From NCBI GenBank assembly GCA_965219455.1, contig OZ244744.1, positions 4,064,001 to 4,128,000 on the forward strand: a stretch of DNA of 64,000 nt, in the 5' to 3' direction. This stretch comes from Candidatus Latescibacterota bacterium (GTDB lineage: Bacteria; Latescibacterota; UBA2968; GCA-2709665). Shown here piece by piece: positions 47,492 through 51,323 of the stretch. The notes beneath the pieces are model-generated. The model saw nothing but the letters and a program-made list of their open reading frames with translations. It had not been told where the DNA came from and ran no database searches. Positions within the stretch are counted from its first letter, which is position 1. Each line of letters begins with the position of its first letter. The position numbers were made by a program, and so were the translations under genes.

Positions 47492-48874
47492 TTAGAATGG
47501 ATCGCCCGGTGTGTAACTTGCAAATCGTAAAGTCTCGGGCAAAAACGTTAGAAACACGCTGCCCGTCGGGCCGTTGCGATGCTTGCCGATGATGATCTCA
47601 GCCTTCCCCGGCGCAATTGGCTGGTCCTCGTCGTCTACTATGCCGTACACCCCCGGCCGATAGAGAAACGCGACCACGTCCGCGTCCTGCTCGATGCTGC
47701 CGCTTTCGCGCAAATCGGAAAGCTGCGGCCGTTTGTCCGTCCTGGACTCAACGGCGCGCGACAACTGCGCACAGGCGACCACGGGCAGATCCAGCTCTTT
47801 GGCCAAAGCTTTGAGCGAGCGAGAAATGTGTGCGATTTCCTGTTCCCGGTTGTCTGTTCGCTGCGAGGTGGTCATCAGTTGGAGATAATCAACCACGATA
47901 AGGCCGATGTCGTGCTCCAACTTTACGCGCCGGGCCTTGGCCCGCAATTCCAGAATGGAGATGTCAGGTGTGTCGTCAATGAAAATAGGCAAGTCTGATA
48001 GCTTTTCAGCCTGTGCGGCCAGCCTTTGCCACTCATCGCCTGATAGTTTCCTATTACGCAATTCGTGTGAAGGCACGCTGGCTTCGGCGCAAAGCATCCG
48101 TAATGCCAACTGCTGCATACTCATTTCAAGGGAGAAATAGAGCACCGGCGTTTTTTTCTCCTCGTCGACAGCGGCATTGCGAGCCATGCAGAGCGTCAAC
48201 GCAGTCTTGCCCATCGACGGACGTGAGGCAATGATAATCAAGTCCGATGGCTGCAGCCCGGCGGTTATTTTGTTGAGATCGGGATACCCCGTGGTAACGC
48301 CCAACAAGGCGCCGGCCTCCCTTTGGGCTTTTTCGATCAGATCAAGTGTCTCGTGCAGTTTGGACTTGAGCGACACCACGCCCTGTCCGAGTTCGCCCTC
48401 GGCGATCCGGAATACCCGTTGCTCCGCACGGTCTATCACTTCCTTAACATCTTCCGCGTCGTCAAAGCACTCAGTCATCGTCTGTGTGGAAGCGTCGATC
48501 AACCTGCGGCGCTGGGCGCGCTCGAGCACGATTCTGGCATGGTATTCCGCGTTCGCGCTGGTCGCCATTTCGCCGCCCAGCCCGGCAACATAGGCATATC
48601 CGCCCACGTCTTCAAATTGCCCGCGGCGCTTCAACTCCTCTACGACCGTCACCTCGTCCACCGGCAGCCCGCGTTCGGATAACGCCAGGACGGCCGCATA
48701 GACCCTGCGGTTTGCAGTATGGTAGAAAGCCGTCTCGTCGCCCAGGACCTCAATTACCCGACTGACGGCCGTGTTGTCAATGAACATGGCGCCCAGAACT
48801 GCCCGTTCGACCTCCAGCGCCTGGGGCTGCGGACGATCTGCGGATGTCGGTGCCGTCGTTGGTTGGGAAGCCAT
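47492..48874 (-). CDS. dnaB: Replicative DNA helicase
   Basis: ASRPSMGKT, FSLEMS, VDYLQLM, QLSR, DLRESGSIEQDAD, KHRNGP. Confidence 0.98.
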   Translation of the reverse strand: MASQPTTAPTSADRPQPQALEVERAVLGAMFIDNTAVSRVIEVLGDETAFYHTANRRVYAAVLALSERGLPVDEVTVVEELKRRGQFEDVGGYAYVAGLGGEMATSANAEYHARIVLERAQRRRLIDASTQTMTECFDDAEDVKEVIDRAEQRVFRIAEGELGQGVVSLKSKLHETLDLIEKAQREAGALLGVTTGYPDLNKITAGLQPSDLIIIASRPSMGKTALTLCMARNAAVDEEKKTPVLYFSLEMSMQQLALRMLCAEASVPSHELRNRKLSGDEWQRLAAQAEKLSDLPIFIDDTPDISILELRAKARRVKLEHDIGLIVVDYLQLMTTSQRTDNREQEIAHISRSLKALAKELDLPVVACAQLSRAVESRTDKRPQLSDLRESGSIEQDADVVAFLYRPGVYGIVDDEDQPIAPGKAEIIIGKHRNGPTGSVFLTFLPETLRFASYTPGDPF

Positions 48875-48918
48875 AGGGTTACACAATCAAATTGGACCCG
48901 GCGTTCTGTCCCGGGGAT

Positions 48919-50627
48919 TAGAGTCTTACAGTGTGACTTCTACGCAAAATGCGTAGATAATTATTCATGCTGCTTGTTTAGTGGTAGGGTGTTGATGGTA
49001 AAGGGTCAAAGACAAGGCGAGTGTTTTGTGCCCCGCGGGTGTGACGCGCCATCGTCTGGACCGTGGGATTTTTGCAATCAGGCCGCGGACGTGTAGACGT
49101 TTGAGGAGGCGGCTGGTGGCATTGGCGTGCCGAGTGCGTTGCAGAAGGGATGCGGGTTGTTGGAAGAGGTGTGTTCGGATGTCCTGGTTGCGGAAGCCCA
49201 TAAGGGCGTGTTCGCCTTTCAACACAGCGGTAAACAGGTCGAGGTCGTAAAGGTCGGCGGGGTTAAAGCCCCGATAGGTACGTCCCTTGTGCCTGCGTGG
49301 CCGCGCCAGTGTGGTGAGGCTTTGATGTCCGGTAGCGGCGTCAGGGGCTGCGGACAGCGCCTGAAAGTAGCGTTGGTTGGCCGTCAACGAGATTTCCCGA
49401 TAGCGGTAGAGGTTGGCCACGCCTTTGGCCATGGGATACCAGCCCATCACGCGTTGTCCTCGCCGTATGCCCCAGCGGCGAACCTTGAACTGCCTTGGAT
49501 GGTTGATCACTGTTTCGACGCGTAGTACGCACCCGTGTTTGTCGTACATTTTAATCCAGTTCTCACACATCCGGTGTTTGACTCTTGCGCCTTTGTGGCG
49601 TTTGTTTTTGAAGTCCGTGAGGACTTCACCCTGAAAGTTGCCGTGGAGTTTGCGGCCCAGGAAGGTCAAGATGTCCTGGGGAGAGAAGCACAGCACCGTG
49701 TGTCTGAGCAGGTTTTCATACAGCGCCTTCAGGGCGTGGGGGTTTTGGAACATCACGTCGGTGGCGAACTCGGCCTGGTCAACGACCCAGTAGTAGTCCA
49801 TGCCCAAAAGCAGGTCGTTGAGCAGGGGGTTGACCTTGCGGGCGAACGCAGAGAGAATGCGCGGCCAATTCTTGCCCACAAAACGATCGGCAAAGCGTTG
49901 CGCCCGGTCCACATCGGCAATCCAGACAAACGCGTTGTCCAATTTTTCATAGGCGATGCCGTGTTTGTCGAGCTTGCGCGCCAAGAACTCGTGGCCATTG
50001 AGACAGATCTGTACCACCAGCGGGAACCAGGACTGGATGCGGATATGCATCAGTCCAAACTCCCGGTCAATCCAGTAGAAGTAGTAGCACAGGCATTTCC
50101 GTTGTGCGTTGATCAGGCGAGGCCTTCCTTCCCCTGGCACCAGCTTGAAACTCTGGCAGCCTTCCAGGGCCCGAAACACACAGACCAGGCCTTGCGTGAT
50201 CCCATCGCGTTTTGCCAACCGTCGCGCTTCGTCCTCTTTCCTGATGGTGTTGCGTTGCAGATAGATGAACGGGCGCTCGTGCTTGTTTGCCATCGCCTCC
50301 GCGTGGGCTTTGATCGTATCGGAATGCGTCATCACAAAACGCTTGAAGTCCTTCAACAACAAACCCTGATTGCTGATGAACCGCTCCATCGCAGTTCCAA
50401 ATCCCAGCGGCAGGTACCCTTTGAACAGAACCCGATCAAAACAGGATACCACTCCGGTGATTTTTTCACTACATTGGTCCACGAAGTCTTTCACGGCGTT
50501 CCTCCTTCCATTGATGGCGGTGGGTACCACCATCATAGGGGATGAACGCCGTTTTGCATACCCAAAAACAATCTGCTCTTGACTACCACCTATTTGGTTG
50601 CGGCTGAGCAAAGCGAAGCCGCGCTAG
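48919..50627 (-). mobile_element. Putative insertion element without TIRs; hairpin ends, flanked by TAG
   Basis: Interrupts the normally adjacent udg-dnaB pair. TAG at 48919-21 and 50625-27. Hairpins TCTACGCA-AAA-TGCGTAGA (48939-57) and GCGGCT-N11-AGCCGC (50600-22). Base skew looks opposite to its neighbours. Confidence 0.7.
48965..50494 (-). CDS. Putative transposase with Rep_trans-like motifs and a C-terminal winged helix
   Basis: AGGAGG RBS before GTG 50494, 509 aa; QAEFATDVMF, IKMYDK..VLRVET, C-terminal SRLLKRLHVRGLIAKIPRSRRWRVT. Confidence 0.65.
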   Translation of the reverse strand: MKDFVDQCSEKITGVVSCFDRVLFKGYLPLGFGTAMERFISNQGLLLKDFKRFVMTHSDTIKAHAEAMANKHERPFIYLQRNTIRKEDEARRLAKRDGITQGLVCVFRALEGCQSFKLVPGEGRPRLINAQRKCLCYYFYWIDREFGLMHIRIQSWFPLVVQICLNGHEFLARKLDKHGIAYEKLDNAFVWIADVDRAQRFADRFVGKNWPRILSAFARKVNPLLNDLLLGMDYYWVVDQAEFATDVMFQNPHALKALYENLLRHTVLCFSPQDILTFLGRKLHGNFQGEVLTDFKNKRHKGARVKHRMCENWIKMYDKHGCVLRVETVINHPRQFKVRRWGIRRGQRVMGWYPMAKGVANLYRYREISLTANQRYFQALSAAPDAATGHQSLTTLARPRRHKGRTYRGFNPADLYDLDLFTAVLKGEHALMGFRNQDIRTHLFQQPASLLQRTRHANATSRLLKRLHVRGLIAKIPRSRRWRVTPAGHKTLALSLTLYHQHPTTKQAA

Positions 50628-50642
50628 GACAAACGGGCGTCC

Positions 50643-51323
50643 TTAACCGGCCGCGCCGTCGTACACTCGTCTGAGAAGCTGCAAATCCTGCCAGGCGGGG
50701 CGCTTCCATTGCTGGTTTCGCAGCAGTGCGGCCGGATGATAGGTGGGAATCAGATGAATGCCTCGGTAAGTAAAAAGCCGACCCCGCAGCGTGCCCAGCG
50801 GTTCGTCCGTATCCAACAGTGTCTGCGCGGCGAATCGACCCAGCGCGCAGATTACGACTGGCTGTATGTGTTCAATCTGCCGTTCGAGATAGGGCTTGCA
50901 TGTATTCACTTCTTCCGGCTGCGGGTCTCGGTTTCCCGGAGGCCGGCATTTGATTACATTGGCGATATAGACCTCTTCGCGTTGAAACCCGATGGCCTCG
51001 ATCATGCGGGTCAGCAATGCGCCGGCTGGCCCGACGAACGGCAACCCCGTCCTGTCTTCGTCCGCTCCGGGCGCCTCCCCGATAAACATCACGCCTGCAT
51101 TCGGGCTGCCGCTGCCAAAGACAACGGTGCGCCGACCCTCCGAAAGCCCGCACTTCCGGCAGTCACGGACCGATTCGTGGAAATCGGCAAGCCGTGTGCC
51201 TGCATCCGTGCGCATGAGTCTGAATTCGGTCAGACCATATTCCGCCTGGGTCTGAACGAACGTCCGCACCGCTTCCAGCGTCTCTCTCGCCTCGACGTCT
51301 AAGTCCACCGGTCTCTTACCCAA
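50643..51323 (-). CDS. Uracil-DNA glycosylase family 4 (4Fe-4S)
   Basis: [38 protein letters not shown]. Confidence 0.95.

Follow-up and report, generated by a model that had tools for sequence, protein, structure and literature searches.

Transposases fall into a handful of chemical classes, and all single-strand or rolling-circle transposons known to us (IS200/IS605, IS91/ISCR, Helitrons and Replitrons) use HUH enzymes. The abstract of a 2022 preprint counts only HUH groups among the Rep-mobilised transposons. According to the portion of Carr (2016, PMC4797284) drawn upon here, the catalytic domain of the Rep_trans initiators is a crescent-shaped sheet with the strand connectivity of the TATA-binding protein (TBP); Y191, R189 and K193 lie with other conserved residues on the inner face of this sheet, and the metal ligands D46, D142 and E214 are each placed on a separate strand. 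A 2026 article (PMC13107129), as far as excerpted, describes the archaeal Rep-Arvir initiators, which have a TBP-like domain related to Rep_trans by structure only, a catalytic tyrosine, two essential acidic residues and a hairpin origin; fusion to a MarR-like winged helix-turn-helix (wHTH) is presented in those excerpts as their defining feature, not seen in bacterial Rep_trans proteins. In this study, we describe an insertion sequence (IS) of 1706 bp in a 64,000-nucleotide stretch of the genome of Candidatus Latescibacterota bacterium (contig OZ244744.1, positions 4,064,001 to 4,128,000; hereafter the window). We consider it probable, at roughly 70%, that its 509-residue transposase is a tyrosine nickase of the Rep_trans/Rep-Arvir type and that it belongs to a large, unrecognised IS family.

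The inserted DNA occupies positions 48919 to 50624 of the window on the minus strand and holds one long open reading frame (ORF), on that strand. It sits in the spacer between dnaB (47492-48886; Pfam DnaB/DnaB_C) and a gene of the UDG family (50643-51323). In 12 of 12 same-genus genomes (six of which were aligned), the dnaB and udg flank pieces are 25-71 bp apart with nothing between them. The junction itself could not be placed in those genomes because their spacer is too diverged, and its position is given by public sequencing runs. In a 5707-nt contig of run X4, position 48918 is followed immediately by 50625, and the flanks differ by 0 and 1 letters; the same empty junction is present in one contig of run X6 and in a 260-nt contig of the RNA-library run X14, and run X1 contains filled junctions. 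This exact empty site in other samples indicates that natural populations of this organism are polymorphic for the insertion. The empty-site contigs skip exactly 1706 bp, and three letters (TAG) fit on either side; owing to this repeated TAG, the element could equally be placed up to 3 nt further on, as far as 48922-50627. The range 48919-50627 given in the original prediction, which was made from the sequence alone, therefore corresponds to the element plus the second TAG.

The genome that contains the window is a single closed contig of 5.84 Mb, and the protein is encoded at 11 places in it: four copies are identical, six are 97% identical, two of these with one internal TAA stop, and one is 94% identical. 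All 11 copies are integrated, and their flanks are mutually unrelated. Nine full-length copies share 1711 bp in DNA alignment, equal to window positions 48918-50628, and two copies besides these nine are broken near one end by other inserted DNA. Shorter derivatives that keep both ends, resembling miniature inverted-repeat transposable elements (MITEs), are also present, at least three of them near-full (245-269 bp) and another of 125 bp, together with several solo ends. Three copies that lie in repeated DNA have paralogous empty sites with a single CCTAA-like word, and the filled sites read C-CTA-[element]-CTA-A. In a sample of the phylum, the protein is matched at E<=1e-10 in 9 of 151 genomes, with a patchy distribution; within the genus, the number of copies ranges from 0 to at least 10 per genome, and some genomes hold decayed fragments only. 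The homologues are multi-copy, patchy and non-syntenic and keep the same ends, whereas single-copy, syntenic homologues with no conserved ends would have spoken against the original prediction. An artefact is ruled out by the 11 copies and the polymorphic site, and we regard it as almost certain that the element is an active IS.

Several copies show further peculiarities. At C1:4795363-4796915, a different repeat of approximately 1560 bp is inserted near the right end of another copy of the element, and this repeat has at least six more near-identical copies in the genome (e.g., C1:1651082-1652641 and 2024815-2026374). The copy at C1:2449997-2451592 is interrupted by approximately 1.6 kb of other DNA. 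Another, at C1:4402914-4404624, lies within a highly repetitive, coding-like region of approximately 28 kb (C1:4388000-4416200) that consists of dozens of units of approximately 125-200 bp with 70-90% identity. The MITEs at C1:2727325-2727570, 3813120-3813364 and 4718392-4718660 carry between their two ends an unrelated G-rich/C-rich palindromic module, which has approximately 46 partial matches elsewhere in the genome and so is a separate repeat family. In the related locus L025 (1-3077; G001:C15:527097-530191), two element copies stand head to tail with an odd joint, at which internal position ~1411 of one copy meets position ~39 of its neighbour, the two having ..AA|G.. in common; instead of a normal insertion, this may be an aberrant event or a rearrangement.

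The two ends of the element differ. Read on the transposase strand, the junctions have the form flank-C-CTA-(G/A)-C-hairpin at the left end (LE) and hairpin-CTA-A-flank at the right end (RE). The left end (50586-50624, minus strand) begins with the bases G-C, continues with a hairpin, GCGGCT(11 nt)AGCCGC, at 50600-50622 and then with the conserved sequence AACCAAATAGGTGG at 50586-50599. The right end, after the stop codon (48922-48964, minus strand), contains a hairpin, CTACGCA(3 nt)TGCGTAG, at 48940-48956 and a terminal palindrome at 48922-48938, which is an imperfect AGTC..GACT in the window copy and AGTCTTAC-T-GTAAGACT in others. Both right-end hairpins fold with z scores of -2.6 to -3.0; the left-end hairpin (z -0.9 in an 80-nt window) is unremarkable by energy alone, yet it is conserved in relatives. 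TAG, or CTA on the transposase strand, stands at 48919-48921, where it closes the right end and forms the proposed cleavage site CTA|A, and again at 50625-50627 adjoining the left end, where we read it as the target's copy of the cleavage trinucleotide. The filled site has this word twice, the empty site only once. No terminal inverted repeat was found, and the 25 longest inverted pairs include no tip-to-tip pair. In these respects the original prediction was accurate: it had described a single 509-residue ORF that splits the udg-dnaB pair, no terminal inverted repeats, a short hairpin just inside each end and TAG on both sides, and the hairpin layout proved to be kept in relatives.

We compared the junctions of 19 Latescibacterota copies, nine from the window genome and ten from two related assemblies. 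All 19 have CTA as the left trinucleotide, 18 of them with C before it, and in all 19 the terminal CTA of the element is followed by A. At the position after the left CTA (50624), the four identical copies and two mutually identical ones have G, and copies that cluster apart have A. This base tracks the copy phylogeny, so it is passed on with the element and does not come from the target.

The original prediction had suggested that homologues be collected and their flanks aligned. We examined distant relatives from several phyla with proteins 27-61% identical: metagenome-assembled genomes of Desulfobacterales, Phycisphaerae and Paludibacter, 17 metagenome loci, and megaplasmids of Paraburkholderia and Burkholderia. 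Layout and junction were readable in 18 elements from these other lineages, with the hairpins of several loci, where these were bulged or the automatic stem finder gave no motif, read by eye; the left end was not recognisable in L060, L062 and L063. The relatives keep the same ends and the C(T/C)A target. Their left flank trinucleotide is CTA in eight, CCA in eight, TTA in one and ATA in one, and it is followed by A or G, one base, a short G+C hairpin and then A(A/G)CC(A/G)A. The left stems across the family are GCGGCT/AGCCGC, GCGGC/GCCGC, GCGGCC/GGCCGC, CCGG/CCGG and GAGGC/GCCTC, with loops of 3-11 nt. The right end has another hairpin, unlike the first, and its 3′ arm leads into (T/C)CTA; the terminus is CTA in 16 of 17 and TTA in one, and the following base is A in 14 of 17. 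Eight distant elements combine a left CCA with a right CTA, which disfavors a simple duplication and fits a left word that belongs to the target and a right word that belongs to the element. The element inserts at 5′-C(T/C)A|A-3′ without inverted repeats, and different conserved hairpins directly abut the two junctions.

Avoidance of CTAA and TTAG inside the element was considered and dropped. The counts in seven elements (5 where dinucleotides predict 25, and 2 where they predict 16.5) have little meaning because the whole genome is poor in these words, and 35-58% of equal-size windows have one or none. Genome-wide, CTAA and TTAG together occur 1.05 times per kb, against approximately 5 per kb by our rough estimate from base composition. 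The final 7-mer of the element, ACTCTAA, is found in pT181 as well, where it lies 5′ of the open frame of repC, a frame that the start of the record cuts (L042 4365-4371, repC strand). We take that stretch to be the origin hairpin loop that RepC nicks; the shared 7-mer may be due to chance.

The transposase gene (48965-50494, minus strand) encodes 509 amino acids plus the stop codon and has a GTG start preceded by a GGAGGA ribosome-binding site. The frame is open from as far upstream as a TTG at 50611 (548 amino acids), and the GTG at 50494 is the likely start; the start position is common to the relatives, which have ATG or GTG there. The moving unit comprises the gene with 130 and 46 nt of flank and no other conserved ORF. 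The protein matches no family in Pfam, NCBIfam (0 families at E<=1), whose models NCBI uses to name IS transposases, or PHROGs, nor any PDB sequence. These searches agree with the original prediction, which had found no sign of DDE, HUH or IS110 enzymes: neither Pfam nor NCBIfam gave a match of the protein to an HUH transposase of the Y1 (IS200/IS605) or Y2 (IS91/ISCR) type or, at E<=1, to a DEDD transposase of IS110/IS1111. With regard to DDE enzymes, NCBIfam gave 0 families at E<=1, and neither the protein nor the 74 family members aligned below had a match to a transposase family in Pfam. RefSeq names the homologues "hypothetical" or "ArsR family"; a Paraburkholderia plasmid homologue, in an element between two cytochrome c genes, is annotated as an ArsR family transcriptional regulator. 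More than 4103 proteins score at E<=1e-3 among 8000 candidates, and the best 120 are mostly on contigs of 1.7-3 kb. The relatives form 7293 clusters at 50% identity (E<=1e-3), 775 of them at E<=1e-30, and none of 50,697 phage records matches the family. The window element is likely to be an autonomous insertion sequence of this very large, so far unrecognised family.

The alignment of 74 sequences (including 73 full-length representatives at 30-46% identity) has the invariant residues D20, R21, G26, G102, E111, Y138, Y140, G147, P158, N166, N187, W236, E242, Y317, R325 and E327; D246 (73/74), K315 (73/74) and K319 (72/74) are near-invariant. For comparison, an alignment of nine Rep_trans sequences (RepC of pT181 and eight more plasmid proteins) has the invariant columns N113, P114, R140, D142, A144, D146, T176, Y178, G180, S184, R189, Y191, K193, E196, R212 and E214. 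Five motifs are co-linear between the two sets. The first, CFDRVLFKG (50417-50443, minus strand, as are those that follow), with D20, R21 and G26 invariant, contains the proposed first metal ligand and has the counterpart SFD46AMTIVG in RepC; the patterns are S-(G/C)-F-D20-R-phi-phi-F-x-G26 and S-phi-D46-(R/A)-phi-T-I-V-G. L-N166-G is paired with F-N113-P-N. The third motif, QAEFATD (49757-49777), pairs Q-x-E242-phi-A-T-D246 with R-x-D142-phi-A-x-D146, an alignment that only permissive hhalign makes. The fourth, KMYDK (49538-49552), holds the proposed catalytic tyrosine and pairs K315-M-Y317-(D/N)-K319 with R189-phi-Y191-N-K193 (R189-I-Y191-N-K193 in RepC). The fifth, LRVET (49511-49525), pairs L-R325-phi-E327 with W-R212-phi-E214, E214 being a metal ligand. 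The original prediction had named three of these, QAEFATD, KMYDK and LRVET, in this order, and they hold seven of the invariant or near-invariant residues (E242, D246, K315, Y317, K319, R325 and E327); the tyrosine, whose lack of conservation would have refuted that prediction, is present in 74 of 74 sequences.

The conserved residues occur in i/i+2 pairs inside the predicted strands 12-27, 235-249, 312-319 and 323-330, a pattern as expected on one face of a sheet. K315, Y317 and K319 are within the predicted strand 312-319, like the basic-flanked tyrosine of Rep_trans, and D20, E242/D246 and E327 fall on three different predicted strands, with local motifs that match D46, D142 and E214. When segments were aligned separately, hhalign paired motif 1 (P 0.01), motif 4 (P 0.0037) and motif 5 (P 0.039), support for the pairing that is only suggestive.

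An AlphaFold2 model built from the 74-sequence alignment (predicted local distance difference test 93.5, predicted template modelling score 0.84) divides the protein into two parts. Residues 1-385 (49340-50494, minus strand) form a predicted catalytic core with a TBP-like saddle, the Rep_trans-type fold, and residues ~386-509 (48968-49339, minus strand) form a linker helix and a MarR/HxlR-like winged helix, with Z scores up to 9.6 (to 3df8). The profile gives weak MarR matches, and helix-turn-helix families match in family members; the model thus bears out the winged helix that had been predicted to follow the motifs. TBPs align to the core with Z scores of 8.0-8.6, a root-mean-square deviation (rmsd) of 3.3-4.1 and 172-180 of ~180 TBP residues aligned, and are the only fold other than the wHTH in the best 50 of 48,161 chains. 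The Rep_trans initiators 4cij and 4cwc are the best-ranked matches of the core that are neither TBP nor wHTH (4cij_D, Z 6.9, 195 aligned, rmsd 4.7; 4cwc_A, Z 6.8, 206 aligned, rmsd 6.4). Foldseek found nothing in the PDB at E<=1e-3; its highest probabilities there were for Rep_trans proteins, 4cij at 0.90 (E 7.7e-3), 4cwe at 0.69 and 4cwc at 0.57, with TBPs as well. Among viral models (BFVD), seven match at E<=1e-3, and giant-virus TBPs are mixed with Rep proteins of Inoviridae. According to the excerpts of PMC13107129, the model match A0A345MNV4 (E 1.2e-3) is an inovirus Rep_trans initiator, and another model match, A0A2N9QVX7, is a phycodnavirus TBP. No RNase-H-fold transposase is among the fold-search matches listed, although absence from that list does not exclude the fold. 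An RNase-H/DDE or HUH fold would have contradicted the original prediction, and the model instead predicts a TBP-like saddle.

These data suggest a mechanism. The TBP-fold domain would act as a metal-dependent tyrosine nickase with Y317 of K-M-Y-D-K as the catalytic residue and D20, E242/D246 and E327 as the proposed acidic ligands. The wHTH and the saddle would bind the hairpins, and the winged helix is probably the part that reads those of the ends. Y317 would nick one strand after the CTA at the left junction and after the element's terminal CTA, forming 5′-phosphotyrosine links, so that cutting would follow C(T/C)A beside the end hairpins and a single strand would be moved. The donor would be resealed to C-CTA-A, and the element strand would be either released and circularised (peel-and-paste) or, in a rolling-circle, IS91-like manner, copied out as displacement synthesis proceeds from the nick at the left end across to the right one. 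The RE-LE junction (...GACTCTA-GCGCGG...) would recreate CTA|R and could then exchange with a C(T/C)A|A target in a reversal of the reaction. Under this scheme the left CTA would be the target's and the right CTA the element's, and there would be no true duplication. The inference of the original prediction, a Rep_trans nickase acting on hairpin ends with a fold different from that of the IS91 enzyme, thus receives support from the predicted fold, the tyrosine, the motifs, the ends and the mobility.

Several results weigh against this reading. The Rep_trans hidden Markov model (HMM; PF02486) matches neither the protein nor any of the 74 members at E<=1, and it has 0 matches in the whole genome at E<=10, with the control genome of B. 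subtilis matched; the DUF7845 HMM (PF25227) has 0 matches in the genome at E<=10, with the control Haloferax volcanii matched, and it is not among the best 25 of the 61 families matched by the 74 members. Whole-profile hhalign against RepC or the nine Rep_trans sequences is not significant (probability 0.1-1.5%); the permissive run that aligns the third and fourth motifs has a probability of 1.5%. The separate segments were chosen post hoc, and motifs 2 and 3 were not recovered from them, leaving three of five pairs. In the comparison with Rep_trans that the original prediction had proposed, the predicted TBP-like fold and the Foldseek probability for 4cij are in its favor, and the hhalign profiles are not significant. 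In the modelled structure, the Rep_trans Z scores of 6.8-6.9 (rmsd 4.7-6.4) are below the caution line of approximately 8, the proteins that match best, the TBPs, are not enzymes, and only the assignment of strands and the i/i+2 spacing would place D20, E242, Y317 and E327 on one face. A target-specific duplication of 3 bp would likewise leave a constant CTA at both junctions. The RE-to-LE back-joint expected of a circle was not seen in four runs, of which only contigs were searched, and contigs cannot show rare forms. Finally, five copies are oriented with and six against the leading strand, which is no bias, on a rough replichore assignment from an asymmetric GC-skew curve. The cumulative skew has its minimum at ~3.52 Mb and its maximum at ~0/5.5 Mb, which would mean very unequal replichores or an assembly or rearrangement issue.

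Part of this evidence would suit a mobile IS in which the saddle is only a DNA-binding scaffold, as it is in the TBPs, which bind DNA and do not cut it. The acidic residues D20, E111, E242, D246 and E327, all invariant or nearly so, would then catalyse metal-dependent hydrolysis and transesterification without a covalent tyrosine intermediate, and the CTA found once in the empty site and at both junctions would be a true 3-bp target duplication; the lack of a profile link to Rep_trans is also as this explanation would have it. However, it leaves aside the invariant tyrosine in [KR]-x-Y-[DN]-K, whose order with respect to the acidic motifs is that found in Rep_trans, and the inverted repeats that two-ended chemistry of the DDE type normally needs are absent. 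Asymmetric hairpin ends abut the junctions instead, and CCA on the left with CTA on the right in 8 of 18 relatives is unlike a duplication. We consider this explanation unlikely.

The same fold and motifs, being those of rolling-circle initiators, could also belong to an integrated mini-replicon, a 1.7-kb unit that excises as a circle, replicates and re-integrates via the same nick site. Its RE-LE junction would recreate CTA|R next to a hairpin, much like an origin, and contigs of element length do occur in several assemblies (e.g., L030 of 1687 bp and a contig of 1711 bp). Such contigs, however, are the usual product of repeats in short-read assemblies, and the closed genome holds all of its 11 copies in integrated form. 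The contigs of the four runs lack the RE-to-LE joint, none of the phage records matches, and the plasmid matches are chromosome-like insertions in megaplasmids; we therefore judge a mini-replicon to be improbable, more so than the scaffold. Least credible of all, to the point that we give it almost no weight, is a domesticated regulator whose repeats are moved by another enzyme. The C-terminal winged helix and the RefSeq name of the Paraburkholderia homologue point that way, but the unit that moves is the gene with its short flanks and no other conserved ORF, identical or near-identical copies are at 11 unrelated sites, and a core of 385 residues with an invariant tyrosine and acidic residues would have no explanation. 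We therefore retain the tyrosine nickase as the preferred reading.

Two features of the gene and its leader are recorded here. A possible leader stem (50493-50552, minus strand) would pair the ribosome-binding site and start codon (50493-50505) with 50540-50552 as an inverted repeat of 13 nt at 92%; it can be drawn in seven of eight relatives in a consensus fold of eight leaders, mostly with invariant pairs and almost no covariation, and is only suggestive as a structure over the start of the gene. The strand opposite the transposase gene carries long open frames, of 339 codons in the window (49535-50545, plus strand), 533 in L028, 545 in L030 and 317-319 in L049/L050; codon usage that avoids TTA, CTA and TCA may account for them, or they may mark a genuine antisense gene.

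The element seems to move by a type of transposase not described before. Searches on this theme yielded Rep_trans initiators, MOBT relaxases, Rep-Arvir and HUH transposons, and no IS with a Rep_trans or TBP-fold transposase was found in the full-text literature searched, which lies outside subscription journals, ISfinder, TnCentral and the supplements of PMC13107129, where bacterial or IS-like relatives might be listed. With somewhat less assurance than we attach to the nickase itself, we favor the view that this is a new mechanistic class of prokaryotic transposon. It would combine a TBP-fold tyrosine nickase of the Rep_trans/Rep-Arvir superfamily with a winged helix, would share no homology with the HUH, DDE, DEDD, serine, tyrosine-recombinase and Cas1 transposases, and would comprise thousands of 50%-identity clusters in at least five bacterial phyla as the bacterial counterpart of the archaeal Rep-Arvir architecture. 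If this is true, a second, unrelated nickase fold does the same job, a clear case of convergence, and the classification of IS gains a class. Thousands of "hypothetical" genes that break metagenome assemblies at ~1.7 kb would be re-annotated, their members having been called hypothetical proteins or ArsR-type regulators until now. Rolling-circle replicons and insertion sequences would be linked here as they are in the HUH world, where Rep proteins stand beside IS91, IS200 and Helitrons. With its short cut word, defined hairpins and single-chain protein of ~510 residues, the system should be tractable for biochemistry and possibly for single-strand DNA insertion tools.

Compared with the Rep_trans initiators (RepC/RepD of pT181/pC221, RepSTK1, the inovirus initiators and the MOBT relaxases of integrative and conjugative elements, ICEs), the element protein likewise has a predicted TBP-like crescent sheet and the invariant tyrosine in [KR]-x-Y-[DN]-K. 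In both, the acidic residues begin with an N-terminal strand (phi-D-R-phi-x-phi-x-G), continue with [DE]-phi-A-x-D and finish with R-x-E. A hairpin DNA site beside the cut and an extra DNA-binding domain after the core are also shared. However, it has no HMM or profile-profile match to them, its core is ~385 residues long with helical insertions instead of ~200, and its DNA-binding domain is a winged helix of the MarR type. Furthermore, it is encoded by a 1.7-kb multi-copy chromosomal element with two different ends and not by a plasmid, phage or ICE. In the excerpts of PMC13107129, the Rep-Arvir proteins (RepSNJ2, DUF7845/PF25227) of archaeal viruses and plasmids have a TBP-like catalytic domain of ~300 or more residues fused to a MarR-like wHTH, a fusion that, according to our model, this bacterial family carries as well. 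They act on a conserved hairpin, their kinship to Rep_trans is visible only in structure, and the Foldseek spectrum of the element protein, with giant-virus TBPs and Inoviridae Rep, is similar to that of RepSNJ2. Nevertheless, the element family is bacterial and not archaeal, the DUF7845 HMM does not match it, and its tyrosine stands in KMYDK, whereas that of Rep-Arvir stands in KHYYM; the same excerpts report Rep-Arvir in viruses, plasmids and ICEs, not in insertion sequences.

In the organization of its DNA, the element shares features with the HUH transposons. Like IS200/IS605 (HUH Y1, peel-and-paste), it has no inverted repeats, no real duplication, subterminal hairpins and MITE-like derivatives, and it inserts 3′ of a short word that then flanks the left end, a similar word ending the right end. 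However, its enzyme is not HUH, having no such Pfam match and another predicted fold; its hairpins abut the cut sites and differ between the ends; and its 11 copies show no replication-orientation bias. With IS91/ISCR (HUH Y2, rolling-circle), it shares two different ends, one ori-like and one ter-like, a target tetranucleotide, the absence of duplication and a single large ORF, although the enzymes are non-homologous and no one-ended transposition or captured flanking DNA was seen among the element copies examined. The two different ends of the element resemble the ori and ter of IS91 more than the two like hairpins of IS608.

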